A DNA stretch of 64,000 nt from an uncultured Pseudomonadota bacterium (GTDB lineage Bacteria > Pseudomonadota > Alphaproteobacteria > RF32 > CAG-239). The notes beneath the pieces were generated by a model. The model made no database searches and had not been told where the DNA came from. It saw only the letters and a program-made list of their open reading frames with translations. The DNA is taken from positions 88,900-152,899 of the forward strand of contig CADAAN010000001.1 in the NCBI GenBank assembly GCA_902785935.1. The letters run 5' to 3'. Positions 7,557 through 32,914 of this stretch are shown piece after piece; positions within the stretch are counted from its first letter, which is position 1, and each line of letters begins with the position of its first letter. The translations under genes were made by a program, and so were the position numbers.

Positions 7557-7558
7557 TT

Positions 7559-13906: not shown

Positions 13907-13971
13907 TTTTTTATCCTTTTATATAAAACAACGTCAGTTTATCTTATTTTTATAACAAAAACAAGATTTTT

Positions 13972-15320: not shown

Positions 15321-15891
15321 TCCTTTTTAAAATATTTAATAACTCTGTTTTAATTATACCTAATGTTTTATTTGTGTCTATTACAAAATCAGCTTTTTTA
15401 TCATATTTTTCAAAACTTTTTTGATTATCAATGATATTTAAATATTCCCCTTCATCTATCAAATCACGTTTCATCACCCTTTTTTGCATCACATCATTCG
15501 GCGCAGAAGTTTGGATTATGTATGTACAATATTTATCAAGTCCCATTTGATATAAAAGTGCACTTTCAAAAAAGAAAATATATTTGCTTTTTTGATAATG
15601 GTGTATTGTCTTTTTTAAAAGAGATATTAAATAAGGATGCGTCAACGCTTCAAGTTTTTGAAGTTGCTTTTTATCTGAAAAAACAATCTTTCTTAAAATT
15701 TTTTTATCAAACTTATTATTATAAAAGGTTTGCGGATAATTTTGCCGGATTATACTTAAAAATTCAGGGTTAAAATACATCTTTCGGCACCATTGATCCA
15801 TATCATAAACAACATACCCTGATGATTTTAATATATTTCCGATTGTTGTTTTGCCGCTTCCTATTAAACCGGTAATACCGATAAGATACAT
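15307..15891 (-). CDS. coaE: dephospho-CoA kinase
   Basis: P-loop GITGLIGSGKTT; start moved to internal MYLIGITG. Confidence 0.8.
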   Translation of the reverse strand: MYLIGITGLIGSGKTTIGNILKSSGYVVYDMDQWCRKMYFNPEFLSIIRQNYPQTFYNNKFDKKILRKIVFSDKKQLQKLEALTHPYLISLLKKTIHHYQKSKYIFFFESALLYQMGLDKYCTYIIQTSAPNDVMQKRVMKRDLIDEGEYLNIIDNQKSFEKYDKKADFVIDTNKTLGIIKTELLNILKRIESA

Positions 15892-16298
15892 TTTTTTAAC
15901 TTTCTTTTTTTTATACACACTTTATTAACCATTTATGTGTATAACTTGTTATATTGTGGGTTAGTTTAGCTTTTTATGCACGTTATTTAAATACTTTTAA
16001 AAGATTTATAAACATGTTGATATTTTTATCAACATTATGTGTATTATGTTTATAATACCTTATTTAATATTTTAAATATCTGAAAACAAATAAAAACATT
16101 TTTTTATTTTATGTTTATAAAACTGTTTATAAAAAATAATCAACAATTTTAACAAGCATATACAATGTACAACAATTTTTTTTAAATTTTTAAAGTAGAC
16201 AGGCTTGGCTGTTGATAATAAAAAATAGTAAAATAATTAAAAATAATATTGACAATTAAATTAAAATATGAAAAAAGAAATATGTTTTGATAAAAAAT

Positions 16299-16375
16299 GC
16301 GCTCTTAGCTCAGCAGGATAGAGCAACAGCCTTCTAAGCTGTGGGTCGGGCGTTCGAATCGCCCAGAGCGCGCCA
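16299..16375 (+). tRNA. tRNA-Arg (anticodon TCT)
   Basis: Cloverleaf read directly: acceptor gcgctct/agagcgc, D-arm tagctcagcaggatagagc, anticodon stem acagc/gctgt with loop cTTCTAa, T-arm gggcgttcgaatcgccc, encoded CCA. Confidence 0.9.
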
Positions 16376-16389
16376 ATACAAAAAAAGAC

Positions 16390-16414
16390 AGCCCCAGTAA
16401 GGGGCTATTTTTTT
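16390..16414 (+). terminator. intrinsic terminator after tRNA-Arg
   Basis: agcccc-agtaa-ggggct hairpin followed by T7 run. Confidence 0.6.
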
Positions 16415-16680
16415 GTATCGTGAAAAGCACCGGCAAGGCTGGTGTTCGAAAGAGCTTATAGCGAGGGGTAGAAAAATAAATTCCTTATGATAGGATGAAG
16501 TGTCTGGCAGACGCAAAACAGCCCCGTTTAGGGGCTGCAAGTGGTAAAGGCTTTTGCCGTTAATAAAGAACCGCCGGCTATGCCGGCAGGTTGCTTTTTT
16601 TAACTGCTTTAATGGACTGGGCTGCAGCTTAAAAAGCCTCGCTCGATCTTGTCGTGTGTCGACGTTGCCGACACACACTG

Positions 16681-16865
16681 CGATTTCGAACCGCTTGCCT
16701 CTTCACCTCAGGTAAAATAGCCAACAAAAAACCTCCCACAAGGGGAGGTTTCATGTTGGCTGCCCATCCTGTACAGTGACGCAACTTTTACAACAACACC
16801 GCAAAGAAGTAATTTCCATCAAAGACCAACTCCGTTATGTGAGGGAAAGATTAGCAGCATAATTC
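16681..16865. repeat. direct repeat copy 1 (core ~105 bp ~90% identical to copy 2, plus weaker upstream extension with preceding hairpin)
   Basis: 16758-16865 aligns to 17924-18031 with ~12 mismatches; both preceded by a hairpin and a tt(t)cgaaccg motif. Confidence 0.7.
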
Positions 16866-17021
16866 TTGTATGTGAAACTTATCATACATTACACTTATTC
16901 TAAGAAAATTGTTAATATATAAAAAAAACATATTTCATAAAATTTCACAACAAAAATGCTTGCTTTTTCCATTAGATGCTATATAATCCAACAAAAAATA
17001 CAATTATGTTATAATATAATT

Positions 17022-17753
17022 ATGAAAAAGAAAGTGAAAAAATTATTAGACAAGCAACAAATTGAGTTGCTGGAAAGTTTTTCTGCAAGAGAAGCCCAAA
17101 TTGTTTTGCTAGAACAAGCTAAAAAAGGATGGCTTTGTCCTAAAGTGCAAAAAAAGCTTTTTTCGATGCCTAATGGTATGGAAATCTTAATTATCCAAGC
17201 GCAAAATGGTCCTATTTCTGCTTACGTACAGATGCTGTTATTTGATTATCCTAATGGATTGAAAGTCCTAATGAAACAGGCCGAACGTGGCGAACTTCAT
17301 ACCAAATTGCAAAGAAAGATTTGTTCCCTTCCTAATGCCTCAAAGTTTTTATTGGCACAATCTAGAAAAGGACAACTTGATTTCGATACTTTGAGAAAGG
17401 CTATGGATTTGTCTGATGGATCCGAAATTACTCTTGAACAAGCAAAAAAAGGTCATCTTTTTCACGAAGATATTCAAATGAAAGCCTGTTCACTTCCTAA
17501 CGCAGATGAAATCATGTTAGAGGAAGCAAAAAACGGCTATATCTATAGTGATAAAGTTCTGCTAAAGGCTTGCGAACTATCGAATGCAGAAGAAATTATT
17601 CAGGCTCAGGCAACCAAGCATGCACTCCGTGATTGTGTACAAATCAAAGCAATGGACTTTAGATGCGGAAGAGAAATTATGGTAGCGCAAATGCGTTTGG
17701 GAAGTCTCTGTAGTGAAGCTCAGCGTAAAGCTATCTCATTGGGCTATATTTAG
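17022..17753 (+). CDS. tandem-repeat protein (8 x ~27-aa repeats, motif ..I.L.QA..G.L....Q.K.CSLPNA)
   Basis: ORF with eight consecutive degenerate 27-aa repeats; start placed at the ATG at 17022 (MKKKVKK) instead of the upstream in-frame ATG. Confidence 0.5.
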   Translation: MKKKVKKLLDKQQIELLESFSAREAQIVLLEQAKKGWLCPKVQKKLFSMPNGMEILIIQAQNGPISAYVQMLLFDYPNGLKVLMKQAERGELHTKLQRKICSLPNASKFLLAQSRKGQLDFDTLRKAMDLSDGSEITLEQAKKGHLFHEDIQMKACSLPNADEIMLEEAKNGYIYSDKVLLKACELSNAEEIIQAQATKHALRDCVQIKAMDFRCGREIMVAQMRLGSLCSEAQRKAISLGYI

Positions 17754-17862
17754 GCCTAAACTTTGAGTCAAAAAAGCGATTGTCAAATAAATGGCAATCG
17801 TTTTTTTGATATTCGATTGAAAAATTCTGTATGTTAAGAAATTTCAAAATAGGTCTATTCGA

Positions 17863-18031
17863 ACCGATAAAAATGAAGAAAAAACAAGGGCTTACGATAC
17901 AAAATCGAAGCCCTGTTCAAATTGGCTGGGCGTCCTGTACAGTGCCGCAACTTTTACAACAACACCGCAAGGAAGTAATTGCCATCAAAGAACAACTCAG
18001 TTTTGTTAGGGAAAGATTAGCAGCTTAAATC
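17863..18031. repeat. direct repeat copy 2 (overlaps 3' end of a 65-aa ORF 17831-18028)
   Basis: See copy 1; the two copies flank the repeat-protein gene. Confidence 0.7.
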
Positions 18032-18250
18032 GGTGTTATAAAGATTTTTACGTAATCTGACCTCTGGGGGGATGGGGCATTCCTCTTGCCATCCCCTCTT
18101 TATGCCGCTTTACGTATGAGGCATAAAATTTATTTTCACTTCCGAATAGATAAAAAAATTCGTTTAGATCAAATTTTTTCAAATTTTTATCTTTTAAACC
18201 ATGTTCTAACAAATAGAGAAACATAAATTTTAGAAAGGAGGTGATTAAAA

Positions 18251-18469
18251 ATGTTGTATAGAGTTTTTGAATCTGATAATGTAAAAGTAAAGGATCCAAT
18301 ATATTTTTCTACGTCTTTTGACAATTTAGAAGAAGCATTACAGTGGTTTAACGATTTGACTGATACATATAAAGACAATCGCAAATCTTATGTTTCTTTG
18401 TGTGCAATTTTTGATGAAGATTACCCTAAAATCAAAAAAAAGACCAAAAGACAAAGTAAAAGTAAATAA
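18251..18469 (+). CDS. hypothetical small protein (72 aa)
   Basis: Preceded by an unusually strong SD (aaaggaggtgattaaaaATG) and followed by an intrinsic terminator. Confidence 0.5.
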   Translation: MLYRVFESDNVKVKDPIYFSTSFDNLEEALQWFNDLTDTYKDNRKSYVSLCAIFDEDYPKIKKKTKRQSKSK

Positions 18470-18492
18470 TAATAAACTTTAGTTACACAATA

Positions 18493-18529
18493 AGCCAACC
18501 GTATTTATAACTAACGGTTGGTTTTTTTA
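18493..18529 (+). terminator. intrinsic terminator
   Basis: ccaaccgt-loop-acggttgg 8-bp stem followed by T7. Confidence 0.65.
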
Positions 18530-18649
18530 TATTCCTACCAACTTCGAATCTAAACAAAATCAACTCAAATCAAATTTTTTATCAAATTTATTCATTCTCA
18601 CGAAAATTTTTTTTGATCTCAGCAGTTCTTACAAACAGGAGAACTGAAA

Positions 18650-19690
18650 ATGAGATGCAATCAAAGACCATTCAAAAAGAATAAAACGGCAAAAAAAACG
18701 CCAGAGAAACCAACAAATGAAGAGTTGGAATCCTTTGTTAGCAACGTCTTTCAAACAATAACCTCTTTAAATTCTGTAGCTTCCAGTAATATTTATATTA
18801 CTTATAACAATATTTATACTTATAAATGTATTTTCAATAGTATAAAGAAACCTATTGATATCAATAAAATTCATTTAAAAGATTGGAAAAGAGTTAATCC
18901 AACAGAACGTTCAGCATTCTTTTCATACTTCTTAGCAGCGAATCCAAATTATGCAAACATATTTCCATTTACTCTTAATCTATCAAATGAAATGGCAGAA
19001 TCTTACGCTGACCTAACATATCCTGAGAAGGAAATATGTATTAGAAAAAGATTGAATGATGAGTTTCTGCATAAAATACATTATATACCGATGTACAGCT
19101 TTGTAATTGAAACAATACCTTATCTGCATATTCACGGTGTAATACAAGTTGATCCGACGTCGAGAGAAAAGCTGAGAGAAGCTATGAAAATTGCTGCTTT
19201 TGGGCGTGATTATGCACAATCGACAATCCATAGGAGGATGTTGAGAATTGAAAAAAAATACAGAAAAACACCTGACCACTGGTTTCGCTATATCCATAAA
19301 TACGAATCAGCAATGGAATCACTATTTATGACTACCTCTCTAAAACGTCTGATCCAATCGCAATATGAAACACTCCGCAAAGACTTGAATGATTACCAAA
19401 AATCAAAGAAATCTACACCTAACACACCAAAAATTACTGAAGAATATATACCAGAACCAAGAATTGAACACCCATATAAACCGAAAACAGATACAGTATG
19501 CCAAACAATTGATCCTTATGAACAATCCTTCCAACAAGTAGCAGATGATAACGAAACACATAATGATATTGAATCCGAAAAGTATATTAGCAACAATATT
19601 ATCAGGGAATATACACTTATCAAACCATATACCCTAAGCTCAAATTATCAACGTCTATACATAAGTTACATTCCACCACCGCTTGTTTGA
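18650..19690 (+). CDS. putative rolling-circle replication initiator / HUH endonuclease-like protein
   Basis: 346 aa; candidate HUH motif (YLHIHGVIQV) followed ~45 aa later by a Tyr-rich motif (KKYRKTPDHWFRYIHKY, Y..KY), the order expected for Rep motif 2 then motif 3. AT-rich codon usage unlike the flanking core genes. Confidence 0.35.
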   Translation: MRCNQRPFKKNKTAKKTPEKPTNEELESFVSNVFQTITSLNSVASSNIYITYNNIYTYKCIFNSIKKPIDINKIHLKDWKRVNPTERSAFFSYFLAANPNYANIFPFTLNLSNEMAESYADLTYPEKEICIRKRLNDEFLHKIHYIPMYSFVIETIPYLHIHGVIQVDPTSREKLREAMKIAAFGRDYAQSTIHRRMLRIEKKYRKTPDHWFRYIHKYESAMESLFMTTSLKRLIQSQYETLRKDLNDYQKSKKSTPNTPKITEEYIPEPRIEHPYKPKTDTVCQTIDPYEQSFQQVADDNETHNDIESEKYISNNIIREYTLIKPYTLSSNYQRLYISYIPPPLV

Positions 19691-19718
19691 TGTATTATTA
19701 TGCTTTACTTGATTGTGT

Positions 19719-20159
19719 TTATATTATTTGTACTGTTGGGTTAAAAATGCAAATCATATTGTCAAACATACCGCATTTATTAGTAACGGTTTGTCCGAAT
19801 GAGTTTACCCCTTCAAATCTAATTCTACCTTTAATGTATCGTATTTCACAGTTGGGTAATATAATCTCATGAAATATTTTAGTTGAAGTTGAAACAGGGA
19901 GTAACATTACAACGAGTTTATTTTTTAGGTATTCTGTATATGCTTTCCTAATGAATAAATCCTTTAGTGGTCTGGAATATGGTGGGTTAACAAAATTACT
20001 ATTACCCCATTCAACTTCTAAACCATTCCAAAGTTCCAGATTATGACAAAGAGGACACGGATCAAAGTCGAAATGGAACTCTTTATCCAGTTCTTCATAT
20101 AAATACTTTGGAGTTTTCCAATCATCCGTTACTGTCAAATTTCTATCTTTCATATTCAT
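19719..20159 (-). CDS. phage-type DNA N6-adenine methyltransferase (Dam, PF05869-like)
   Basis: 146 aa; FDFDPCP ... NPPYS catalytic motif order characteristic of phage N6A methyltransferases. Confidence 0.65.
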   Translation of the reverse strand: MNMKDRNLTVTDDWKTPKYLYEELDKEFHFDFDPCPLCHNLELWNGLEVEWGNSNFVNPPYSRPLKDLFIRKAYTEYLKNKLVVMLLPVSTSTKIFHEIILPNCEIRYIKGRIRFEGVNSFGQTVTNKCGMFDNMICIFNPTVQII

Positions 20160-20265
20160 ATAGAACTGGAATAAGCGGTAGTTAGCATAGATTCGGTGAT
20201 TATAACAACAAAAAAAAGAGGTATATAAAACACCTCTTTCAATGCTTTGGTTATTTAATGTATAC

Positions 20266-20592
20266 TCAAAATTCTGATGTTAGTAGTATACTTAGCACAC
20301 GATTGGTAAGCGTTATATCAGCAGGATTTGGCGATGCATATTCGTATTCTTTATCATAATAGTCTATTTTCCACATTATTTGCTTGCCGTTATAGTCAAA
20401 TTTTCCCATATCATGCTCAAAATAGGGATCGTTTGCTGTTGTGAAGTCATCATAAGTAGAAACTAAAAGCATAATAGCAGCTACATCCATCTTTGGTAAT
20501 GCTCTTATTCCTCTACTTAATACAACTTTTCCACCTGTAAAGTTTTTGCGGAAATCATCATTCAAATACCTGATAAGTTTTGTACTTCCCAT
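20266..20592 (-). CDS. hypothetical protein
   Basis: 108-aa ORF in the phage/plasmid-like module, RBS-like aggataaacaATG. Confidence 0.4.
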   Translation of the reverse strand: MGSTKLIRYLNDDFRKNFTGGKVVLSRGIRALPKMDVAAIMLLVSTYDDFTTANDPYFEHDMGKFDYNGKQIMWKIDYYDKEYEYASPNPADITLTNRVLSILLTSEF

Positions 20593-20606
20593 TGTTTATC
20601 CTAATT

Positions 20607-20738
20607 TTAATATAACGGAACTATTTCTGTAAAAACAGCTGCCGATTTCTTTTTTTCTTCATAACAAAAATCCATTGCTTGCCTTAAAGAATAAAACAGA
20701 AAAGGCATTCTGACGTTATTTATGATTACTTGGTACAT
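20607..20738 (-). CDS. possible small protein (43 aa) with strong SD
   Basis: ggaggataacaatATG on the minus strand (too short for the ORF track); MYQVIINNVRMPFLFYSLRQAMDFCYEEKKKSAAVFTEIVPLY. Confidence 0.3.
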   Translation of the reverse strand: MYQVIINNVRMPFLFYSLRQAMDFCYEEKKKSAAVFTEIVPLY

Positions 20739-20836
20739 ATTGTTATCCTCCTATCTATATTGGTTTTTAGATAACAGTATAGCATCGTTTCTTTATATAA
20801 GAACAGTAAAAAAAGTATGATTAATTTTTGTATGAA

Positions 20837-21220
20837 TTAAATTGATACAGGTTGATGCGAAAATATTAGTGCAACAACGTCTTTTCGTTTGTTTTGATCA
20901 ACTACTTTACCATTGATAAACCAAATCTTCGGGACATTACCAAGTATAAATTGGAAAAGCCGTGAACTTGTTGAAACCGAAAGAATTATAACAGAGTCAC
21001 GTCCACGCACAAATTCCCAAAATGCTTGTTCAACTGCCTGCGCCTTTTCTTTTTTGTTTTTGTTAAGTAGGTTTATGATATTGATATGGGCTGCAGAAGT
21101 ACCAAACTTAGAAGAATTTGAAAATGAGTGAAATATTTTTTGTTGTACTTCTGCAAGATTCATAGTCTTTACCAATGAAATGTTCCCATATCTTATTAAT
21201 AGAACTCGGTTTTTTAACAA
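20837..21220 (-). CDS. hypothetical protein
   Basis: 127-aa ORF, module context. Confidence 0.4.
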   Translation of the reverse strand: MLKNRVLLIRYGNISLVKTMNLAEVQQKIFHSFSNSSKFGTSAAHINIINLLNKNKKEKAQAVEQAFWEFVRGRDSVIILSVSTSSRLFQFILGNVPKIWFINGKVVDQNKRKDVVALIFSHQPVSI

Positions 21221-21408
21221 AAATTACTTGTCGACAACTTAAAAGTAATTTGCCCACAGATGATAAATCAGAAAACCGTCATAGAGTCGTTTTTAGACTC
21301 GCTGAGGTGGTGCTTCTGTTTTTTGTGGTAAACTTATGCTTGAAACCACGAATCACACCACAGAGTCCTTAAAACCAAAATAAATGGTATCAAAATTTAA
21401 AATTGGAT

Positions 21409-21762
21409 TTACTTTTTTGATTTACATAAACCTTCAATCTGTTTTTCCAGAATGTGCAGCGTGTTTTCATCTAATTTCCTTAATAACACTATGATACGGT
21501 TTATGGTGTTTTCGTTCGATTTTTTGTAATCAGAACTGTTAACATCATCAACATCAAGAATGGTAAGTAGGCTAACATCTAAGCTTTGAGCTATTTTTTT
21601 GAGTGTACTGATTTTCGGATCGCCTAAACCACGCTCTAAATTGGAAATTGTATTTACCACCCTTTCACATCTTGCGGCTAATTCCTCTTGGCTGACACCT
21701 TTTGTCTTTCTCAAAAAGGCTATTTTTCTTCCGATGTTATATATAAAATCGTCTTTATGCAT
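21409..21762 (-). CDS. XRE/Cro-C1-type helix-turn-helix transcriptional regulator
   Basis: HTH signature KGVSQEELAARCERVVNTISNLERG; divergent from the giant surface-protein gene. Confidence 0.7.
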   Translation of the reverse strand: MHKDDFIYNIGRKIAFLRKTKGVSQEELAARCERVVNTISNLERGLGDPKISTLKKIAQSLDVSLLTILDVDDVNSSDYKKSNENTINRIIVLLRKLDENTLHILEKQIEGLCKSKK

Positions 21763-21949
21763 TGGTTATACTCCACAAATGATGTTACTACCATTGCAGT
21801 TTATGTTCCACGCAACAAATTGGTATTTTTTAGTATTGACAATCCAAAAATACAAATATATTGTGATATATATAGTAATCTATTGTGAGATTTTAATCGT
21901 AGATTAGTATATAGCCATTATTACTGAACGCCACAGAGAGATACGTACT

Positions 21950-24900: not shown

Positions 24901-26125
24901 TGATACTTCACAGTTTACTGTGGAAGGTGCGATATCTGGTGATTTGGCCATTAATAACAATGTGATTGAAAATGGTTTTGATACGACATATTCTGTAAAA
25001 GATATGATTCAGGCTTCTGATGCCAGTGGCTTAAATTTGCAATCACAATCGGCTTTATTTGATGCCTCGTTACAAAACAATACCGATGCCGTGATGACGA
25101 TGAAAGCGTTTAACGATGTGGTTGAAAACAGCTCGGTTGCCGACTTCTTACAAAAAAACTATGCAGCAAACAATAACGAAGATTTGTTCAAAGTTCTGAA
25201 ATCTGCCGAAACTGTGGCTCAACTCAACAGCAATATTGATGATTTGTTCGGCAAAGATATGCTTTCACGTATGGCGTTTGAAGATTTATCGATGCTCCGT
25301 GAAGTCAGTTTGGATATGAATAATCACCTATTCGAAAAAGAAGGTTCGTTTGCTTTCGGAGAAAATATATCGCCTTCAAGCTACGACAATAACATCGGAT
25401 CTGTAGGACGTTATTCATTGAATGGATATAATAATGGAAAAATGAGCTTTGGGCTTGGCGTATCAATCACCGATGTTAGCACTGATGACGGGCATAGTGA
25501 CAACCGACGCTTTGACCGTAGTTTTATGATGAGTGCTCCAATCGGCTATAAAACACACGGATTTGAGTTGATCACGGCTCCGAAAATGGGTTATACCGAT
25601 GGAACTTATGATCGTGAAGGCTTTAATAACAAGACTTATGAGGGCAAAATCCAAAAACGTATGTTCGCTTTGATGAATGAAGCACGTTACCCAATTAAAT
25701 TCGGTGGTTTAAGATTTACGCCAACGGCTGAATTTAATATGATTGGTTATAATATCAAAGGTCATGAGGACGAACAACAATATGCATTGCGGATTAAGTC
25801 ACAAAACCATTATTCGGTTGAAACAGGTCTTGGTTTGATGGCTGAAAAAGAGTTTAAGCCGTTCAAAAATCACAAGTTTAGCGTAAATGGCGGTGTTACG
25901 GTTTATCATGAATTTGCTAATCCGTATGAGCTTGATGTAGCTATGAGTGGTATGTCTGGTACGTATCGCTTACATGATGAAAAACGCAGCGACAATCGTG
26001 CCGTTGTTCGCTTAGGTTTTGATTATAAACTGAAAGATGATCTTGATGTTACGGCGCATTTGCTAACTAATATTGACCGTGAATATCGTACAGACGCTGG
26101 CATCGACTTGAAATATCACTTTTAG
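21950..26125 (+). CDS. giant surface protein: signal peptide, ankyrin repeats, Gly/Ala-rich hydrophobic segment, Cys-rich EGF-like tandem repeats, G(D/N)G(D/N)VYG passenger repeats, C-terminal autotransporter-type beta-barrel
   Basis: 1391 aa. N-terminus MNLNIKLMLFIAIFSTFSYETQA. Ankyrin-like SGNTALCLAVANKDEKAYNVLIQYGANP. Hydrophobic/G8 segment GAIVAAGAGVAAAAGGGGGGGGSS. 38-aa Cys repeats (C..GY....DTCLSG..TMYKCE). C-terminal ~280 aa with alternating beta-strand pattern ending ...DLKYHF (terminal aromatic). Confidence 0.8.
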   Translation: MNLNIKLMLFIAIFSTFSYETQARYLSTGDIYEYARTRNYWALSKIARYVDMQDGSGNTALCLAVANKDEKAYNVLIQYGANPQPYCLQSAIVASGSSGTFLGMGTTGWLTTGAIVAAGAGVAAAAGGGGGGGGSSDSSSSNNPSPSITCVNGSISSGQCQCDEGWIGDTCDTVQTCSYNTTSCSSGYEETGNTCKSGSITYKECKAKTVPSGYTITPCGDGYMQIGTFLSGTQTYYKCQANTCAGYQSSCGDGYHATTDTCLSGTTTMYKCEANVCEGYVDGCSSGYHATTDTCLSGAKTMVKCEINDCSEYQTSCGEGYNATQSCLSGNTPYYTCTPKEVPTGYTSTPCSEGYITKDTIISGTTPYYKCEVNACTGYVTSCNQGYHTTADTCKSGSKTMYKCEADSCTGYNYTVCPTGYAQSDSCLSGLTMKYKCENCANGYGRDEKGNCVTKEADKVIATGTANNIDRTYTDTLTIKGYKDLYVFKGNYTYAANAETSGTSSYQTIIMDVIKKGDGDFYGVFNSQGSSYNSKNADGTIKLEKTGDGDVYALWGEDGVSNSSASGSYGETATGNIEILNNGNGNIYGGYSKEGSTINAYSGKSSGIANGASTGIIKMLNNGDGNVYGLLSDTKTGTNASSVNTVGKNYSTTSSAEGRIIINNTGDGDVYGIKSGSDVYNTSSLIRGGASGSDIRYGNTNVDGYIRIKNSGGGNSYGLYGTNTYSSSFESDAEYTTVVALQTSNSVIDILNLGKGNAYGMYAVGTSSAVAKAENRTYSGSFSLYPDQTYSATSNIKILNNDDGFVVGIYSKGKVTNDGNITIHNLGEGTAIGIYAGNAIQNSTVTNSGSINITRVNYIDDNATQDDTSDDENYTATSMAGGTSIGIYGASGSTIKNTGTITISGASIAYGIYAESGATVKNTGTITIDGNTNHVNKIKLNGSPLFQDGKLIVTNNTQSSLMSVSSVKPASLNLNDFGGTVVASDTSQFTVEGAISGDLAINNNVIENGFDTTYSVKDMIQASDASGLNLQSQSALFDASLQNNTDAVMTMKAFNDVVENSSVADFLQKNYAANNNEDLFKVLKSAETVAQLNSNIDDLFGKDMLSRMAFEDLSMLREVSLDMNNHLFEKEGSFAFGENISPSSYDNNIGSVGRYSLNGYNNGKMSFGLGVSITDVSTDDGHSDNRRFDRSFMMSAPIGYKTHGFELITAPKMGYTDGTYDREGFNNKTYEGKIQKRMFALMNEARYPIKFGGLRFTPTAEFNMIGYNIKGHEDEQQYALRIKSQNHYSVETGLGLMAEKEFKPFKNHKFSVNGGVTVYHEFANPYELDVAMSGMSGTYRLHDEKRSDNRAVVRLGFDYKLKDDLDVTAHLLTNIDREYRTDAGIDLKYHF
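22670..23300 (+). repeat. intragenic tandem repeats (~114 bp / 38 aa Cys-rich units) inside the giant protein gene
   Basis: Near-identical nucleotide units, e.g. ggttatca(t/c)gcaacaacaga(t/c)acttgttt(a/g)tctggt... repeated. Confidence 0.7.
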
Positions 26126-26145
26126 CAATAACAACCGAAACGAAT

Positions 26146-26176
26146 CGACCGCTGCATTTATTTGTGGCGGTTTTTT
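26146..26176 (+). terminator. intrinsic terminator after giant protein gene
   Basis: ccgctgc-atttatttg-tggcgg hairpin followed by T6. Confidence 0.6.
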
Positions 26177-26344
26177 GTAATAGGTAGAAGTAAATGAGTA
26201 TATTTTATCGGTAATCTTAGGCGTACTTCAGTATTACCAAAAAAAATGCTCCAAAATGGTAATATTAAGGTTATTTTTTACTTGACAACTAAAAAGTAAA
26301 TGATATACTAAGACTATAATATTACTTTTTGAAAGGTTAGAACG

Positions 26345-26917
26345 ATGAAATTTTTATATGCTCGTGTTTCAAGTTCAGACGGTTCGCAAAAACTCGATCG
26401 TCAACTTGTGGAATCTGGTAAATATGATGAAATTTTTGAAGATTACGCTTCAGGTGGTTCAACAAATCGTCCTAAACTGCAAGAAATGTTGAAATGGATT
26501 AGAAAAGGTGATGTGGTGGAAGTTCATAGCATTGACCGCTTAGCAAGAAACATCAATGACCTACTGCAAATCGTTAAAACCATTACAGAAGAACGTCACG
26601 CTGAAATCTACTTTATCAAAGAAAATCTACGTTTTACTGATGATACCGATAATCCATTTAACAAACTAACCCTTCAAATCATAGGTAGTATAGCCGAATT
26701 TGAAAGAAATATGATTAAAATGCGTCAGAAGGAAGGTATTGCTATTGCCAAAGCAAAAGGTGTTTATTCTAAGGAACGGAGCAAAAAATTATCGCTATCC
26801 AAACAAGCCGAATTGAAAAAAGACATTCAAGATAAAGTCCGTGTATGTGAAATCCTCAAGAAATACGGAATAACGAAACCCACATATTATCGCTATAAAG
26901 CACAATGGGAAGAATAA
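26345..26917 (+). CDS. small serine recombinase (resolvase/invertase family) with C-terminal HTH
   Basis: 190 aa; N-terminal YARVSSSDGSQKLDRQ catalytic-serine motif; TTGACA-17-TATACT-like promoter upstream. Confidence 0.85.
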   Translation: MKFLYARVSSSDGSQKLDRQLVESGKYDEIFEDYASGGSTNRPKLQEMLKWIRKGDVVEVHSIDRLARNINDLLQIVKTITEERHAEIYFIKENLRFTDDTDNPFNKLTLQIIGSIAEFERNMIKMRQKEGIAIAKAKGVYSKERSKKLSLSKQAELKKDIQDKVRVCEILKKYGITKPTYYRYKAQWEE

Positions 26918-26946
26918 TAGTAAATGGTTGTAATTTTCCGAAGTTC

Positions 26947-27288
26947 TCAGCCAAAATCTTTCTTTAGGAGTTGTATATATTCTTCTATATGTGCAAGTAG
27001 CTGATCATCTAACTGGTAAATCGTTTGTATGACCTGATTTTCCTTCCTGATACGTGTGACTGATTTGTTTTTTGTTATCCGTGCGTCTAGTAATTCATCA
27101 ATACTTATATCAAAGTAATTAGCTAAAGCACAAACCAACTCTAACTTTGGTATTACTTTTCCTGTTTCCAAATTTGATATTGTTCTCCAACTGACACCTA
27201 CTGCTTCAGCTAATTGTTCTTGAGTTAGCTTTTTTGTTTTGCGTAATGCTTGAACTTTTGAACCAATTTGAACAGGATCAACAGTCAT
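26947..27288 (-). CDS. XRE-family HTH transcriptional regulator
   Basis: HTH LTQEQLAEAVGVSWRTISNLETGK; immediately downstream of the nuclease gene on the same strand. Confidence 0.7.
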   Translation of the reverse strand: MTVDPVQIGSKVQALRKTKKLTQEQLAEAVGVSWRTISNLETGKVIPKLELVCALANYFDISIDELLDARITKNKSVTRIRKENQVIQTIYQLDDQLLAHIEEYIQLLKKDFG

Positions 27289-27289
27289 T

Positions 27290-27757
27290 TTACTTTTTCT
27301 CTTTGGATTTTTTCAATACACTTGATGGTATGTACTTATTACAACCACCTTGATCAAGCATATATTGGTTAACATCAATCACACCAGCGGATTTTATGTC
27401 ATCCAGATACACTTTTCCTAAAATACGACCAAAAGAATCACGTTTTTCCCACTCAACCCGTATATACCGATGATCTTTAAGTAGATTTTTTAGCTGTTTC
27501 CGTGATTGCTTACCGTGTTTAATGACTTCATCAACCGACAAACCATAGTATTTTTGCTGAAATCTGGTGTTGCTATTCTTTCCTGTTTCATAGCAATCAA
27601 CATCCAGCAAGCGAATTTTAGTCGTTTCATTATTAACCAGAGCCGTCAATGTATCGCCATCGTTAATCTTGATGATAGTTGCAACAAATTCGTGTGCTGA
27701 TACCGATTGCACCAACAAAATCGTGAATAAAACCAGATAAAAAACCGTTTTTTTCAT
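27290..27757 (-). CDS. secreted thermonuclease (SNase/micrococcal-nuclease-like)
   Basis: Start placed at MKKTVFYLVLFTILLVQSVSA (signal peptide); SNase-type motifs (IKINDGDTLT...IRLLDVDCYE). Confidence 0.7.
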   Translation of the reverse strand: MKKTVFYLVLFTILLVQSVSAHEFVATIIKINDGDTLTALVNNETTKIRLLDVDCYETGKNSNTRFQQKYYGLSVDEVIKHGKQSRKQLKNLLKDHRYIRVEWEKRDSFGRILGKVYLDDIKSAGVIDVNQYMLDQGGCNKYIPSSVLKKSKEKK

Positions 27758-28370
27758 CAACTCTTCCATAAAAGAAGACCACCTTTTGATTAAGGCGGTC
27801 GGAGAGTTCAAAATCAAGTCTACGAGTTGATCCTTCCAACCTTTAGAGCAAAACTCCTATTGTATACGTTGGAAGCTCCCCGACCATCATCGGGGATATA
27901 TACATCATCAGCCTTTATACAAGCTGACAATGTTGTCGGCGTATATCCACACCGCGTAGACAGAGGTTTTGAAGCCCTCCGCACCTTTTCGGGCACTGAG
28001 CACAGAATAAACCTGTGCCTAACCAGACAATATAGCAAGAATCTTAAAAATCAATAAAAAAGGAGAAAGAAGTTAAAAAGCCTTCTAATTCCGTACATTT
28101 TACTCAGCTAAAATTTCCGTTTATGTCAGATAAATGGAAATTTATTTTCGAAAGTGTCGTCAAGAAAAGAATTCTAAAAATGTAACTAGCGACATTGGGT
28201 TTTCGTCCGCTAGGAGACCTTAGCTTAAGTTACAAAAATGAAAAACTTAGAAGAAGACATAAAAAAACTAATCGGTGCGACAGATGAAACGTTAGATCAA
28301 ACCGAAACATTATTTAAATTTACAAAAGCAATGGAATGTTTGAACAATTGTATAAAGGAGGGAAAAAACA

Positions 28371-29702
28371 ATGAAAGCAGTGACGTTTGCAAGAGTTTCG
28401 TCAAAATATCAGGAACAGAATTACAGTCTGGAAGGGCAAAATACACACCTTTTCAATTATGCCAAAGCAAATAAACTCGACGTTATAAAATCTTATGAGA
28501 TTTCTGAAAGTGCGACAAGAGGTGATCGCACAAAATTTAAGGAAATGATAGATTTTTGTTGTTCGCAAAAGGAATGTGTTTCAATCATAGTAGACGATGT
28601 TGACCGCCTTTTGAGAACGTTTTCGGATGCGCCAGAGATTGAAAAACTTGTACAAGAAGGACAAATAGAGATACATTTCTATAATACGTCTCTTATTTTG
28701 ACGAAAAATTCAACACCTGATGATTATTTAAAATTTCACGAATTAGTTTTAGATTCGGAAAAATATATAGCAAAGTTTAAGAAAAATACAGCTCGTGGTC
28801 GAAATGAAAAAGTTATGGAAAAATGTATGGCCGCTTGGAAAGCACCTTGTGGTTATGAGAATTTTGAGCAAGATGATAAAAAAAAATCGATTCGAAAAAA
28901 AGAACCAGATGCCACAAATCTAAAGAAACTTTTTGAACTTTATTCCTTAGGCGGAACATCAATTCGTAAATTAGTTGCTTTAGCTGATGAGTACGGAATC
29001 AAAACAAAAAATGGAAATAAAATTGGTGTATCCACTATGATTGGGATTTTAAAAAACCCGTTTTATTACGGAGAAATGTGTTATAATGGTAAATTATATC
29101 GACACAATCACGGTGCTATAATATCAAGAGAGTTATGGGAAGCTTGTCAAAAACAGCATAAGCTTCAATCATCAAAGTCATTCAAGCAAGGTCGAATTCC
29201 TTATCTGTATCGGAATGTTTTTAAGGATTGGTACAAAAACCTTACTTGCTCTTGTGAAACAAAGAAAAACAAGTATATCTATATAAGTTACTATAGAGAT
29301 TCTAAGTATAGGTCTTATGTGAATGAAAATGATATTAATGACCAAATTGTTAGCATTCTAAACCAAATTTCAATACCAAAAAATTTTATAGATGATTATA
29401 ATCTTTATATACAATCAACACAACAAGATGAAATTGCATTTAAAGCTGCTGAAAATGGGCATATCAAGGCTGAAATAACAAAATATGATAATAGATTAAG
29501 CAGATTACTTGATAGATTTCTTGATAATGAAATGCCAGAAGAAGAATATGAAAAGAAAAAGCAGGAATATGAAGAAGAAAAATCAAAACTCGAAAAGAAA
29601 ATCCAAAATCAAGGTACAATTGAACCTGATTCAAAACAAATTTCAACAGAATCAATTCATTTATTCTCTCGTTTAGGTGATTCCAAATGGGACTGGATAT
29701 AA
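28371..29702 (+). CDS. large serine recombinase (paralog A), probably frameshifted at its 3' end
   Basis: N-terminal catalytic domain (FARVSSKYQEQNYSLEGQ), recombinase domain and zinc-ribbon (APCGYENF...CSC), strong SD aaggaggg. The ORF stops at 29702 but homology to paralog B continues in another frame to ~29827 (NKQMLLRLIFKELKIRDG vs NKQLLLHFIFEKLELKEG). Confidence 0.8.
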   Translation: MKAVTFARVSSKYQEQNYSLEGQNTHLFNYAKANKLDVIKSYEISESATRGDRTKFKEMIDFCCSQKECVSIIVDDVDRLLRTFSDAPEIEKLVQEGQIEIHFYNTSLILTKNSTPDDYLKFHELVLDSEKYIAKFKKNTARGRNEKVMEKCMAAWKAPCGYENFEQDDKKKSIRKKEPDATNLKKLFELYSLGGTSIRKLVALADEYGIKTKNGNKIGVSTMIGILKNPFYYGEMCYNGKLYRHNHGAIISRELWEACQKQHKLQSSKSFKQGRIPYLYRNVFKDWYKNLTCSCETKKNKYIYISYYRDSKYRSYVNENDINDQIVSILNQISIPKNFIDDYNLYIQSTQQDEIAFKAAENGHIKAEITKYDNRLSRLLDRFLDNEMPEEEYEKKKQEYEEEKSKLEKKIQNQGTIEPDSKQISTESIHLFSRLGDSKWDWI

Positions 29703-29891
29703 AAAACAAGCAAATGTTACTGAGATTGATATTCAAAGAACTCAAGATTCGAGATGGAAATGTTGGGTATAGCCTTAACGAACCATTTTCCTATTTTATT
29801 AAACAAGAATCTCAAGCATCAGCATAACTTTATTAATTAATTTGATTAAATTTCGAAGCTCTGGTAAATTTACCAAAAAGGAAACGAAACT

Positions 29892-31583
29892 ATGAAAGCG
29901 GTAATTTTAACAAGAGTTTCTTCAAAAGAACAAGAAGAAGGGCACAGCTTACCTGCCCAAAATGCAAGGTTAATTGAATATGCCAAGAGAAAGAATCTCG
30001 AAATAATTCGCACATTTCAAATTATCGAATCATCAACACGAGGAAAGCGCAAAGAGTTTATGGCAATGATAAACTTTTGCAAACAACAAAAGGAAACCAT
30101 TGCAATCGTTTGTGAAAATATTGACCGCCTCCAAAGGAGTTTTCGTGAGTCGGTGTTGTTAGACGATTTAATCCGTAAAGAAATAGTTGAACTTCACTTT
30201 TTTCGTGAGGGTATGATAATTGGCAAAAGCTCTACTTCCACCGACATTATGCGTTGGGATTTTGGTGTAATGGGTGCCAAGGCATATGTTCTTCAGCTTT
30301 CTGAAAATGTAAGAAGATCTTTAGAATACAAACTGAATAATGGGGAAGTAATAGGACCAGCACCTTGCGGATATGAGAATTATATAAATGAATACGGGAA
30401 ACATTCTATTCGGAAAAAAGAACCAGAGGCAACTTATCTCAAGAATTTGTTTGAATTATATTCCATTGGTAGTACATCCATCCACCAGTTAACTAAGATG
30501 GCTAATGATTACGGTATCAGAAGTAGAATGGGGAACAAACTTGGTGTGACGTCAATGATTGTAATATTAGATAATCCATTCTACTATGGGGAGATGCTTG
30601 CAAAAGGGCGATTACACCGACATATCTACGATCCGTTAATTACAAAAGAACTTTGGGATGCTTGCCAAGAACAACGGAAACTTCAAACAACGAAACCATT
30701 CAAGCAAGGAGAAATACCTTTTCTTTACAGGGGAATCTTTACGGATCATTACAAACAAAAGATATGTTCCTGCGAGATCAAAAAGAAGAAGTTTGTATAT
30801 GTGGTATGTTACAAAGAAAATGGAACACGAATTTATATACCTGAATATGTTATTGACAAGCAAGTTGAAGATATTTTAGATGATGTAGCTGTACCTGAAC
30901 AAACCATTTCTGATTTTAAGGAATACATTAAATCAAGTAAACAAGCGGAATTGGATTATCAAAGATCCGAATTAGAACGAATAGATGCTAAGCTAAAGAA
31001 AATCGACCAGCGTATGACGGCACTGTTTAATATGCGTTTAGACCAAGAAATAACCAAAGAAGAGTATGAAACCAAACGTGATGAGTATAAACTTGAAAGA
31101 TCTCGATTGGAATTACTGAGAAACGCCCATCACTTAGCAGATGACGGATTTAATGAGACAGTTTTGAATATGTTTGACCTGTTAACATCTGCAAAGGGCG
31201 TATTCAAATCAAATACCAGCGTTCAAAACAAACAATTACTGCTGCATTTCATATTTGAGAAATTGGAACTTAAAGAAGGTGTTATCAGTTATAAGCTGAA
31301 ATCTCCATTCTGCTACACCAAAGTTGATAGTTCGATGTCCAGTATGTCTCCTGTACCAGCAAAAAACGCCAAAAATTGGGAACTCATTGAAAATACAGAA
31401 TTAAATGGCAAATTTGGGGTAATTTCAGGTAATTTTGATGAAGACGTCTGGGAACCGTGTGGAAGCGCTGAAAACAAAGGGCTCTCGACGTGTTGCGAGA
31501 ACCCTGTACAGTTTGGCTGCTTCACCTGGACTCGAACCAAGATTGACGGAGTCAGAATCCGCTGTCCTACCATTAGACGATGA
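29892..31583 (+). CDS. large serine recombinase (paralog B) with ~60-aa C-terminal read-through across tRNA-Gln
   Basis: ~45% identical to paralog A over the catalytic, recombinase and zinc-ribbon domains. Homology with A ends near ...SPFCYTKVD (about 31340), but the frame stays open to 31583, spanning the complementary strand of the tRNA-Gln. Confidence 0.8.
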   Translation: MKAVILTRVSSKEQEEGHSLPAQNARLIEYAKRKNLEIIRTFQIIESSTRGKRKEFMAMINFCKQQKETIAIVCENIDRLQRSFRESVLLDDLIRKEIVELHFFREGMIIGKSSTSTDIMRWDFGVMGAKAYVLQLSENVRRSLEYKLNNGEVIGPAPCGYENYINEYGKHSIRKKEPEATYLKNLFELYSIGSTSIHQLTKMANDYGIRSRMGNKLGVTSMIVILDNPFYYGEMLAKGRLHRHIYDPLITKELWDACQEQRKLQTTKPFKQGEIPFLYRGIFTDHYKQKICSCEIKKKKFVYVVCYKENGTRIYIPEYVIDKQVEDILDDVAVPEQTISDFKEYIKSSKQAELDYQRSELERIDAKLKKIDQRMTALFNMRLDQEITKEEYETKRDEYKLERSRLELLRNAHHLADDGFNETVLNMFDLLTSAKGVFKSNTSVQNKQLLLHFIFEKLELKEGVISYKLKSPFCYTKVDSSMSSMSPVPAKNAKNWELIENTELNGKFGVISGNFDEDVWEPCGSAENKGLSTCCENPVQFGCFTWTRTKIDGVRIRCPTIRR

Positions 31584-31587
31584 AGCA
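31514..31587 (-). tRNA. tRNA-Gln (anticodon CTG)
   Basis: Minus-strand cloverleaf read directly: acceptor tgcttca/tgaagca, anticodon stem gcgga/tccgt with loop ttCTGac, T-arm cttggttcgagtccagg, discriminator g plus CCA; resembles enterobacterial tRNA-Gln anticodon/T arms. Confidence 0.8.
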
Positions 31588-31648
31588 ATTAAACTCGATT
31601 TGAGGTTTCTATATTCTTTTTTTATATTAATGTCAAATATTTTTTTGT

Positions 31649-31679
31649 TTGACAAGCAATTTTTTTTGTGTTTTAATAT
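31649..31679 (+). promoter_or_regulatory. candidate sigma70-type promoter for the LRR-gene leader (TTGACA ... TAATAT)
   Basis: TTGACA at 31649-31654 and taatat at 31674-31679 (19-nt spacer), ~30 nt upstream of the conserved leader. Confidence 0.35.
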
Positions 31680-31707
31680 TACTTAGGCAGGCAAAATGTT
31701 TTGTTTG

Positions 31708-31959
31708 TGGAGTGCCCTGATAGGGTACGGGGCTTTAAAACAGCCTTTCAGATAGACAGTGAAGGATAACGCTGTATTTAGTGTTGTTTTTTTGTTTTAA
31801 ACAATAGTTATCCCCGACAGATGTTGGGGAGTCTGTAACGGATGTACAAGGATATATTCCTAAAGGTTATGGAAGTCATTTTCTATCTGATGATTGTTTT
31901 ACTCCCCGTCGCTCTTTAAAAGTGCGGCTTTTTTAAAACGTAAAAACAGGAGAAATAAT
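31708..31959 (+). promoter_or_regulatory. conserved structured 5' leader (copy 1) ending in a terminator-like hairpin immediately upstream of the RBS of the LRR gene
   Basis: ~75% identical to the minus-strand leader at 57368-57627. Shared blocks: ccctgatagggtacgggg, cagtgaaggataac.ctgt, tagtgttgttttttt, ttatccccga, ggaagtcattt, ccccgtcgctcttt..ggtgcg.cttttttt. Hairpins are maintained with compensatory changes. Confidence 0.5.
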
Positions 31960-32913: not shown

Positions 32914-32914
32914 T

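Follow-up and report, generated by a model that had tools for sequence, protein, structure and literature searches.

Integration-dependent immunity of the mycobacteriophages BPs, Brujita, and Charlie was reportedly described by Broussard et al. 2013. In these phages, the phage attachment site (attP) lies in the 3′ end of a gene, and the repressor and the integrase carry a C-terminal degradation tag (PMC3694055, PMC6109161). In the SSV-type archaeal integrases, the recombination site lies in the integrase open reading frame (ORF), a tRNA gene is the target, and the integrase gene is partitioned (PMC7253208, PMC8371274). Tyrosine integrases are usually said to be directed to tRNA and tmRNA genes, whereas serine integrases are said to be directed to coding regions (PMC6109161); the main systematic survey of large serine recombinases (LSRs) leaves tRNA unmentioned (PMC10083194). 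For phiC31, a C-terminal motif controls directionality (PMC2475636). Here we analyzed a 64,000-nt stretch of contig CADAAN010000001.1 from an uncultured alphaproteobacterium (the window, meaning this whole stretch), which holds an island of 14.8 kb (16763-31519) composed of two elements, E1 and E2, next to a tRNA-Gln(CTG) gene. We put the probability at about 0.8 that E1 and E2 are two tandem site-specific integrative elements at the 3′ end of this tRNA gene, inserted by a serine integrase, LSR2, whose gene spans attP. The island and its borders comprise the following features.

16299-16375, + strand: tRNA-Arg(TCT) (ARAGORN, Rfam), a host neighbor with no attachment-site role
16745-16790, + strand: attL (B-core-P′), GGAGGTTTCATG TTGGCTGC CCATCCTGTACAGTGACGC, with the core TTGGCTGC at 16756-16763 and the symmetry center TG at 16761-16762
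16763-17928, + strand: E1, a recombinase-less mini-element of 1.17 kb, with a P′ arm containing a tail exon, one gene, and a P arm containing a terminator
16763-16862, + strand: detached recombinase 3′ exon, copy a, which after ...GTTTGGCTG encodes, in frame, CPSCTVTQLLQQHRKEVISIKDQLRYVRERLAA and a stop
17905-17955, + strand: internal junction (P1-core-P2′), CCCTGTTCAAA TTGGCTG GGCGTCCTGTACAGTGCCGC, with both arms of P type
17929-31519, + strand: E2, the recombinase-carrying element, 13.6 kb, bounded by the internal junction and attR
17929-18028, + strand: detached recombinase 3′ exon, copy b, encoding ...ASCTVPQLLQQHRKEVIAIKEQLSFVRERLAA followed by a stop; the left terminus of E2
28371-29702, + strand: LSR1, a large serine recombinase (Pfam), 42% identical to LSR2; frameshifted, the intact form being 486 amino acids (aa)
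29892-31583, + strand: LSR2, a large serine recombinase (PF00239, PF07508), 563 aa in the integrated form
31478-31505, − strand: element-borne terminator (terminator scan; fold −17.7 kcal/mol), now 3′ of tRNA-Gln and inside the LSR2 ORF
31490-31540, + strand: attR (P-core-B′), GAGAACCCTGTACAGT TTGGCTGC TTCACCTGGACTCGAACC, with the core at 31513-31520 and TG at 31518-31519
31514-31587, − strand: tRNA-Gln(CTG) (ARAGORN, Rfam), the integration target, whose last nucleotides (..CAGCCA) are supplied by the element

A first-pass annotation of this DNA had proposed that an insert of one or several tandemly integrated elements lies between tRNA-Arg(TCT) and tRNA-Gln(CTG), with large serine recombinases at the tRNA locus. 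ARAGORN and Rfam agree on both tRNA genes, whose 3′ ends both face the region, and the predicted genes are indeed found there; the insert itself is narrower (16763-31519), and tRNA-Gln alone is used. The left junction (16762|16763) lies 387 nt past tRNA-Arg, which has its own terminator at 16390-16406, and no repeated fragment of tRNA-Arg was found within the region. The island appears to sit at the tRNA-Gln 3′ end only, with the integration logic belonging entirely to tRNA-Gln and tRNA-Arg a mere neighbor. Alignment of the 3′ flank of tRNA-Gln with 16.4-18.1 kb, as the annotation had advised, located the att junctions and resolved the island into two elements with junctions defined to the base; at 26.1-26.4 kb, where it had also pointed, no att-like site was found. 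Its description of repeat-rich noncoding DNA is borne out by many hairpins and by a 116-nt direct repeat (16750-16865 and 17916-18031, 88%).

Both LSRs were recognized by Pfam, with E-values of 1.9e-15 (LSR2) and 6e-15 (LSR1) for PF00239 and of 8.7e-12 (LSR2) and 2.4e-15 (LSR1) for PF07508, and the LSR2 ORF enters tRNA-Gln. Antisense tRNA sequence supplies its final 21 codons and the stop (31520-31583), so that the protein ends ...CPTIRR. When LSR2 was joined at 31519 to position 16763 or 17929, an in-frame ORF of 575 aa was obtained that ends ..HRKEVISIKDQLRYVRERLAA (RYVRERLAA) or ..HRKEVIAIKEQLSFVRERLAA (SFVRERLAA), respectively. A six-frame search for the tail motif found it in the window only in copies a and b (17972-18028), and elsewhere contiguous with an LSR gene in loci that have no tRNA. 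The in-frame 575-aa joint and the matching tail of the tRNA-less relatives place attP within the 3′ portion of the integrase gene, which would make the C-terminus of the protein dependent on the integration state.

To place LSR2 among its relatives, we searched with the protein and retained 602 relatives at E ≤ 1e-10 among the candidates scored; 16 IMG/VR and 79 metagenomic loci were fetched, 88 of which hold the LSR C-terminal region. Two of the IMG/VR loci capture both states of one element. L012 and L013 are 100% identical over 11606 nt and split right after TGGCTG, 6 nt into tRNA-Gln(TTG). Past this breakpoint L013 continues into the tRNA and L012 into phage DNA with an endolysin gene; the upstream genes of L012 encode a helicase loader, an exonuclease, and a dUTPase. 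From this pattern of divergence, L012 is therefore the free genome, carrying attP, and L013 the prophage junction, carrying attR, and we used their divergence point as the breakpoint reference for writing the sites of the window. More free forms with intact tails are L014 (..HRAEVLAIKDQLDFVRQKVAA) and L038 (..FVRQKFAA). P0001, 91% identical to LSR2, has a tail derived from a slightly different tRNA-Gln. No tail exon was found within the 10-kb flanks of the other integrated loci, and those elements are therefore larger than 10 kb. An element that carries the tRNA itself was also considered and was ruled out by the free-form loci, which lack a tRNA.

The sites read around the three breaks as GAGAACCCTGTACAGTTTGGC-TG-CTTCACCTGGACTCGAACC (attR, 31519|31520), GGGGAGGTTTCATGTTGGC-TG-CCCATCCTGTACAGTGACGC (attL, 16762|16763), and GAAGCCCTGTTCAAATTGGC-TG-GGCGTCCTGTACAGTGCCGC (internal site, 17928|17929). 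Only three exact copies of a 10-mer, CCTGTACAGT, are present in the window (16768, 17934, and 31503), with TTGGCTG adjoining each; allowing one mismatch gave 7 matches in the window compared with a shuffle mean of 0.9. In the reconstructed attP, inverted TGTACAG arms stand 14 nt apart with TG in the center, and the attP of L012 has a like geometry with the arms TGTTCAG and CTGGACA. The predicted attP reads ..CCTGTACAGTTTGGCTGCCCATCCTGTACAGTG.. (junction k-mer for the composite, ACAGTTTGGCTGCCCATCCTGTAC) and the predicted bacterial site, attB, ..GGTTTCATGTTGGCTGCTTCACCTGG.. (junction k-mer TTCATGTTGGCTGCTTCACCTGG). Identity between attP and attB is confined to the 8 bp of TTGGCTGC, which reads antisense to GCAGCCAA at the end of the tRNA, and strand exchange is predicted to take place inside this 8-bp identity, with TG as the symmetry center. 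An independent attL in L121, a locus of another alphaproteobacterial metagenome-assembled genome (MAG), fuses the P′ arm seen in the window with another host arm, and the joint falls on the same nucleotide (GCCCCCTTTCGGGGGCTCATTAGTGGCTG|GGCGTCCTGTACAGTG). A crossover within the palindrome CCTGTACAGT was ruled out, as the break in L012/L013 and in L121 follows TGGCTG, the one joint that preserves the reading frame.

Substitutions among tail exons were distributed over codon positions 1:2:3 as 156:95:278 (7 exons, pairwise), and the terminal Ala-Ala and stop were kept through GCA, GCT, and GCG codons. The excess of third-position substitutions and the synonymous Ala-Ala codons argue that the tail is translated, and we read it as an exon of the recombinase gene. 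Copy b and the left end of the E2-like element of L121 differ in 3 of the last 22 codons over the tail exon, and the DNA at 17923-19405 is 84% identical to its L121 counterpart. In the AlphaFold2 (AF2) model of a free-form homolog, P0027, residues 1-476 have block-mean predicted local distance difference test (pLDDT) scores mostly of 70-90, residues 480-535 are disordered, and the last ~30 residues are helical with pLDDT of 74-81. In the RVS[ST]xxQ motif of the catalytic domain, R8, S10, and E13 are retained in at least 90% of the free-form relatives, and Q14 is invariant in alignment A1. For a zinc-ribbon domain with an embedded coiled coil, there was no Pfam zinc-ribbon match; the P0027 model has short strands at 283-317 and long helices at 350-412, and conserved cysteines number 2-3 only.

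The arrangement recurs throughout the relatives; neither the integrase gene divided by integration nor the size of the clade had been remarked on in the first-pass annotation. About 75 of the 120 best homologs end in antisense-tRNA peptides by a crude pattern match (for example ..CFTWTRTKIDGVRIRCPTIRR, ..WGGWIRTNECRHQKPMPYHLATPQ, ..NWLLHMDSNHD, and ..GEPDGIRTHDPLIKSQMLYRLSYGP), and a further 25 of the 120 end in AA, 19 of them as [LVIFM]AA, mostly after R.E[IV]L..[KR][ED]QL. A convergent tRNA gene lies within 500 nt in 43 of the 88 loci (Gln, Asn, Leu, Lys, Arg, Ala, Glu, His, and Pro), and all 43 have an LSR ORF that runs on without a stop into the tRNA. Between the conserved core and the tRNA end lie either ~34 nt or ~176-195 nt. 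In the distant part of the clade (28-47% identity; L024, L048, L054, L057, and others), the tRNA 3′ end follows 33-36 nt after the ..PF.. core end, and the free-form tails mimic the tRNA T-arm peptide (..LDAFRT.. and ..LDGFRT.. versus ..LDSNQ..), which suggests that in these members the P′ arm copies the B′ arm. Identity of the LSR2 clade to the integrases of cultured phages is ~23%, and the best match to a solved structure is the TP901-1 catalytic domain (E 1e-4). Judged from these comparisons, the clade appears to be large, uncharacterized, and remote from every characterized serine integrase.

The cargo and the host context of these recombinases vary. The module of LSR1 and LSR2 adjoins an identical tRNA-Gln in four other loci (L008-L011), in which the host flanks and the cargo differ; the cargo includes a type I restriction-modification system with a WYL protein, or Fic, AAA, and HSP70-like proteins. 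The left backbone of E2 (tail exon, 70-aa ORF, Rep-like gene, and DUF3768 gene) recurs in L120-L122 with other cargo, such as MmeI, helicase, Y-family polymerase, and radical-SAM/HxsD genes; L120, like L121, comes from the other alphaproteobacterial MAG. The first-pass annotation had held that the same genes in the same place in related genomes, with no empty-site allele and with a core-like composition, would speak against a mobile insert. No empty site was found, and all 4 contigs of this organism are occupied, yet relatives exist in both states and the recombinase pair travels with varied cargo. Mobility of the element, as far as it can be read from genomes, is supported by these both-state relatives and by the recombinase pair in its varied cargo and host contexts.

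Integration into the 3′ end of a tRNA gene also concerns transcription termination. The terminator at 31478-31505 coincides with a stretch of conserved residues in the relatives, KKQEV..NLTS (also KKQEV..NLTSVQ); the conservation of this stretch is odd, and we attribute it to the linker DNA also encoding the terminator and the left half-site. At the opposite end of the island, a strong terminator lies on the − strand at 16715-16765 (terminator scan; fold −29.6 kcal/mol, z −5.9). This hairpin is presumed to be the original terminator of tRNA-Gln, displaced and now 14.8 kb off. By its sequence, the element restores the 3′ end of tRNA-Gln and brings a replacement terminator with it.

We hypothesize that the two C-termini serve as a sensor of the integration state. 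In the free circle, the gene would encode a 575-aa protein consisting of the core, a disordered linker whose DNA holds the terminator and the left half-site, and a helical tail of ~33 aa ending in -LAA. On integration, the tail exon is carried away to the opposite end (16763-16862 and 17929-18028), and the LSR ORF then enters the tRNA in antisense to give the 563-aa form. Alphaproteobacterial ssrA tags end in ..AA. With an ssrA-like tail, the free integrase could be unstable for as long as integration has not stripped off the tag, and the integrated isoform would be without it; for the BPs-type phages, such logic is documented for the repressor and for the integrase as well (PMC3694055, PMC6109161). 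Excision would require a directionality factor.

A different role for the tail is also conceivable, if in our view rather unlikely: the C-terminal helix could be a recombination module that inhibits the enzyme itself or offers a docking surface to a directionality factor or to the coiled coil, with the free form favoring integration and the integrated form excision. The helix is amphipathic and conserved over ~22 residues, beyond the last three, and in known serine integrases contacts of the C-terminal coiled coil set directionality (PMC2475636, PMC3783163). However, the invariant feature of the tail is the C-terminal Ala-Ala, and the AF2 model of P0027 gives per-residue confidence only; a recombination module would, moreover, be compatible with a degradation tag.

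Several observations weigh against two mobile elements governed by a state-sensing integrase. The island is occupied in all 4 contigs of this organism, from at least 3 independent assemblies, and may be fixed. An exact search of the JGI metagenomes for the predicted attB under both crossover models gave 0 matches, and searches of IMG/VR for the predicted attP, for the P′ arm with the tail exon, and for a ~165-nt structured unit beside attL gave 0 matches each. In the related MAG L004 the rearrangement at this place takes in core genes (HAD, dnaQ, and coaE) and leaves no clean empty site. LSR1 is frameshifted in the window copy, and no candidate for a directionality factor was found among the small ORFs of E2. 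The idea of a degradation tag draws on the C-terminal [LVIF]AA and on analogy only, and a few relatives end in LVA or LVV; the tail of the integrated form varies with the target tRNA. The junction between E1 and E2 has P-type arms on both sides, is not a canonical product of attP and attB, and needs an attB-like attR, which we assume. Finally, the ~165-nt units of the window and of L121 are unaccounted for by the simple model.

Some of these points would fit an island that has become a fixed, immobile remnant in this lineage: the same arrangement in 4 of 4 contigs, the attB and attP junctions that were not found in the JGI metagenomes and IMG/VR, and the LSR1 frameshift, to which the E1 stump and the decayed junction-like hairpins at 16420-16600 can be added. 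We consider such a remnant possible but rather unlikely. LSR2 is intact, as are the two tail exons, the two arms, and the perfect 8-bp palindromes; few samples hold the organism, and the collections searched exclude its source reads. LSR1, too, is intact in a sister assembly. The lesion is a 4-nt deletion near 29678, where the window reads GGTGATTCC and encodes 443 aa, and the sister assembly (L001) reads GGTGACATATTCC and encodes the intact 486 aa; intact orthologs are present in L001, L008, and L009. A contig that ends exactly at the indel (L118) suggests that both LSR1 variants exist in the population.

It is improbable that, in an architecture that is real, the tail swap has no regulatory role, attP just happening to overlap the end of the gene and the tail being kept as the P′ half-site. 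The linker does bear the marks of DNA signals (the terminator hairpin and the half-site) and is predicted to be disordered, and in the distant part of the clade the tRNA stands only ~34 nt beyond the conserved core. However, the conserved tail reaches ~100 nt past the crossover, compared with the ~25 bp that a serine-integrase half-site spans (PMC3783163), and the codon-position pattern of 156:95:278 with its synonymous Ala-Ala and stop, as well as an ORF that is open over ~190 nt of AT-rich DNA in every member, argue against a tail without a role. Two unrelated islands, one per tRNA, of which the left entered through tRNA-Arg and has since lost its integrase, would suit the two inward-facing tRNA 3′ ends and the more AT-rich left part (18-21.8 kb) but are very improbable, since no tRNA-Arg fragment is repeated in the region, the tail exons at 16763 and 17929 have the orientation and frame that LSR2 requires, and the Rep-like and DUF3768 backbone of L120 and L121 opens with the same tail exon.

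Returning to two tandem elements at tRNA-Gln, E1 and the DNA to its left contain the following features.

16420-16600, unstranded: GC-rich, hairpin-rich spacer, with B-arm-like hairpins at 16425-16455 and 16519-16545 and a P-arm-like terminator at 16571-16589
16600-16762, unstranded: structured unit of ~165 nt, whose first part is a decayed tRNA-Gln 3′ end and whose last part is the attL B arm (terminator hairpin and TTGGCTG)
16956-17753, + strand: 265-aa ORF of 27-aa repeats, the sole gene of E1; an orphan, recognized by its periodicity
17858-17928, + strand: remnant, the last 71 nt of another recombinase gene, which forms the P arm of E1, ends TTGGCTG, and has a terminator hairpin on the − strand (−17.5 kcal/mol)

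The remnant is 100% identical to positions 1614-1684 of L019, where a recombinase gene with 57% identity to LSR2 has its 3′ end. In the simplest history, E2 would have used the attR of an element already in place as its entry point, and this resident would later have been reduced to E1; such an entry into attR is plausible because the left arms of attB and attP are alike (..TTCATGTTGGC versus ..TTCAAATTGGC). The 27-aa repeat protein of the first-pass annotation is real, with a lag-27 autocorrelation of 0.50 against a shuffle maximum of −0.26. The 265-aa ORF gave no match to Pfam, PHROG, NCBIfam, or PADLOC, its homolog search was empty, and Tandem Repeats Finder (TRF) detected no repeat at the DNA level.

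The spacer at 16420-16600 looks like decayed older junctions, and its hairpins, judged by eye, would resemble the B arms of L121. In the ~165-nt unit, a copy of the 19 terminal nt of tRNA-Gln comes first and a terminator hairpin with GTTGGCTG comes last; the window has one such unit and L121 has four (6336-6455, 7448-7615, 7612-7765, and 9125-9290), and 12 base pairs in these units are kept through compensatory changes. The unit-unit junction of L121 near 7612 resembles an unoccupied attB (B|B′). Segments of 0.9-1.4 kb with a single gene occur in L121 (6556-7448 and 7762-9125) and in the window (16763-17928). They have a tail exon (partly decayed) and P′ arm on one side. The opposite side carries a P arm and terminator in E1 and in the second segment of L121; in the first, this arm is degenerate. 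Their proteins are of 216 aa, 213 aa (Phage_30_3), and 265 aa (the repeat protein). The segments could be deletion stumps or cassettes mobilizable in trans. Cassette-like layouts are seen in E1 and in at least two places in L121, and it is a speculative extension, in our view unlikely, that the 3′ flank of tRNA-Gln is a landing pad for serine recombinases that grows serially, with mini-element cassettes moved in trans by the split-gene integrase and the ~165-nt units renewing attB, as an integron-like gene capture with two integrase isoforms.

Besides the recombinases, E2 carries the features below.

18066-18140, + strand: two conserved hairpins, the second with the loop CTTTACGTAT; kept in L121 (9423-9500) and L122 (172-250)
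18251-18469, + strand: 72-aa ORF with a strong Shine-Dalgarno sequence, called in all contigs; a 70-aa counterpart lies beside the Rep-like gene in L120 and L121
18650-19690, + strand: 346-aa Rep-like protein, possibly an HUH-type initiator, with motifs read by eye only
19719-20159, − strand: orphan Dam-type N6-adenine methyltransferase (PF05869, E 9e-20; phrog_111; PADLOC orphan methyltransferase)
20266-20592, − strand: DUF3768 protein (PF12599, E 3e-29), linked to the Rep-like gene also in L120
21409-21762, − strand: XRE-family regulator (PF01381)
21950-26125, + strand: 1391-aa predicted surface protein with a signal-like N-terminus and 33-aa Cys-rich repeats, ending ...KYHF
26345-26917, + strand: small serine recombinase of the resolvase/invertase type (PF00239, E 6e-37; phrog_125 DNA invertase)
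26947-27288, − strand: XRE regulator (profile match), paired with the SNase gene
27290-27817, − strand: SNase-family nuclease (profile match), predicted to be secreted from a signal-peptide-like N-terminus seen by eye

Pfam or PHROGs matches agree with the first-pass annotation on the Dam methyltransferase, the two XRE regulators, the resolvase, and the SNase. Two of its labels fared less well. The label of HUH Rep for the 346-aa protein keeps the motifs read by eye, of which FTLN, LHIHG, and YIxKY are conserved in 8 Rep-like sequences, and lacks a match to any Pfam, PHROG, or NCBIfam profile; the AF2 model has a pLDDT of 43, and the 8 homologs, one of them the identical protein itself, include none with a functional annotation. 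If the protein is an HUH Rep, the hairpins at 18066-18140 are a candidate origin of rolling-circle replication. The label of ankyrin-autotransporter for the 1391-aa protein found no profile support: the ankyrin match (E 0.018) and weak EGF-like matches are all below threshold, and a translocator beta-barrel domain had no match in Pfam, NCBIfam, or PDB sequences, leaving only the terminal ...KYHF, noted by eye. Within this giant ORF, 22600-23270 contains 99-nt tandem repeats (C..GY....C.SG....YKCE) whose DNA copies are 61-81% identical. Among the E2 proteins tested, PADLOC named no defense system beyond the orphan methylase and helix-turn-helix (HTH) regulators; the SNase gave one weak match (PDLC01096 “SNc+LTD”, E 5e-07). 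The XRE-SNase pair adjoins the recombinase pair in L009 and L010 as well.

The AT-rich composition noted earlier for 18-21.8 kb is real yet modest. GC content is 0.318 at 17929-21900, ~3.5 sd under the flanks (0.381 ± 0.018, 4-kb windows), 0.347 over the whole of E2, and 0.475 at 16376-16762.

The host DNA around the island was compared with that of two related MAGs, L003 and L004, obtained from UppP relatives in GTDB genomes; the window itself is near-identical to scaffold_449 (ENA assembly ERZ28613383). In L004, which is alphaproteobacterial, xseA, an M23 gene, and uppP are followed by tRNA-Leu, an MFS gene, and a pentapeptide-repeat gene (compared with 13900-32940 of the window), and the block running from HAD, dnaQ, coaE, and tRNA-Arg to tRNA-Gln and the leucine-rich-repeat gene is placed differently. 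In L003, a tRNA-Thr and an AbiE toxin-antitoxin pair follow uppP. The DNA downstream of uppP is a synteny breakpoint. We considered L004 as an empty site and rejected it: 32.9 kb is joined to 13.9 kb with dnaQ and coaE missing too, which is a rearrangement. BspA-type leucine-rich-repeat proteins (PF13306) are encoded at 31894-32913, beside tRNA-Gln, and at 40355-40729 and 56918-57400, and L008 has a similar leucine-rich-repeat gene beside the orthologous tRNA-Gln.

Through the island, this uncultured alphaproteobacterium, whose source, judging from the sample names, is probably a rumen metagenome, gains a surface protein of 1391 aa, a predicted secreted nuclease, and an orphan methylase. More broadly, the serine integrases of this clade target tRNA genes of at least nine kinds at their 3′ ends, each with its gene wired across attP to give two proteins according to state. 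As the crossover sits within the integrase ORF and its distance from the tRNA end is fixed, the att sites can be read straight from genomes, which offers a ready catalog of orthogonal integrase/att pairs for highly conserved targets.

Compared with the serine integrases of phiC31, Bxb1, TP901-1, and A118, LSR2 has the same resolvase and Recombinase domains and a gene beside attP, and its att sites are likewise short, with imperfect inverted arms and a central dinucleotide, and attP shares little sequence with attB (8 bp here). It differs from the phiC31-type phages in that the target is a tRNA 3′ end and not a protein-coding gene, and in that attP lies within the integrase ORF. The staphylococcal cassette chromosome SCCmec, with CcrA and CcrB, resembles the island in its adjacent paralogous large serine recombinases at the cassette end, its variable cargo, and its tandem cassettes, and it differs in its target, the 3′ end of rlmH (orfX) as opposed to tRNA-Gln; the Ccr models scored 41-52 bits here, compared with cut-offs of 700-900, and the score was also far under the XisF cut-off. 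A classical tRNA-linked island has a tyrosine integrase and direct repeats of at least ~15 bp; here the region has no tyrosine integrase, and the identity is 8 bp. Work on Streptococcus ICESt1 and ICESt3 is said to have described cis-mobilizable elements (CIMEs) and the tandem accretion of integrative and conjugative elements (ICEs) and integrative and mobilizable elements (IMEs) with tyrosine recombinases and a long identical core in attL and attR. E1 may be likened to a CIME, as it is bounded by att sites, has no recombinase, and stands in tandem with an autonomous element that could act in trans; it differs from CIMEs and ICEs in that accretion here needs an attR that mimics attB.

The first-pass annotation regarded serine recombinases at a tRNA as comparatively unusual, which is correct for the literature, where they are rare, and has to be qualified by the large metagenomic clade and by a precedent, Paracoccus phage vB_PamS_Pami6, which is likewise an alphaproteobacterial temperate element with a serine recombinase and integrates at tRNA-Met (PMC6536676). 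A literature search found no serine integrase with attP inside its own ORF, an absence that concerns the searchable literature and is no proof. The BPs-type phages share with our locus an attP in the 3′ end of a gene; their split gene is that of the repressor, and their integrase is of the tyrosine type, whereas here the split gene is that of the serine integrase itself, and the tag-like character lies in the [LVIF]AA ending only. The SSV-type integrases share an attP inside the integrase ORF and a tRNA gene as target, but they are tyrosine recombinases left as two inactive pseudogenes, whereas in LSR2, a serine recombinase, only the last ~33 codons would be swapped, with the catalytic and DNA-binding domains intact. 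If this reading is true, the split gene would amount to a compact means of sensing its own state, to our knowledge otherwise described only for tyrosine-recombinase phages, through their repressor genes, and for the archaeal SSV integrases.

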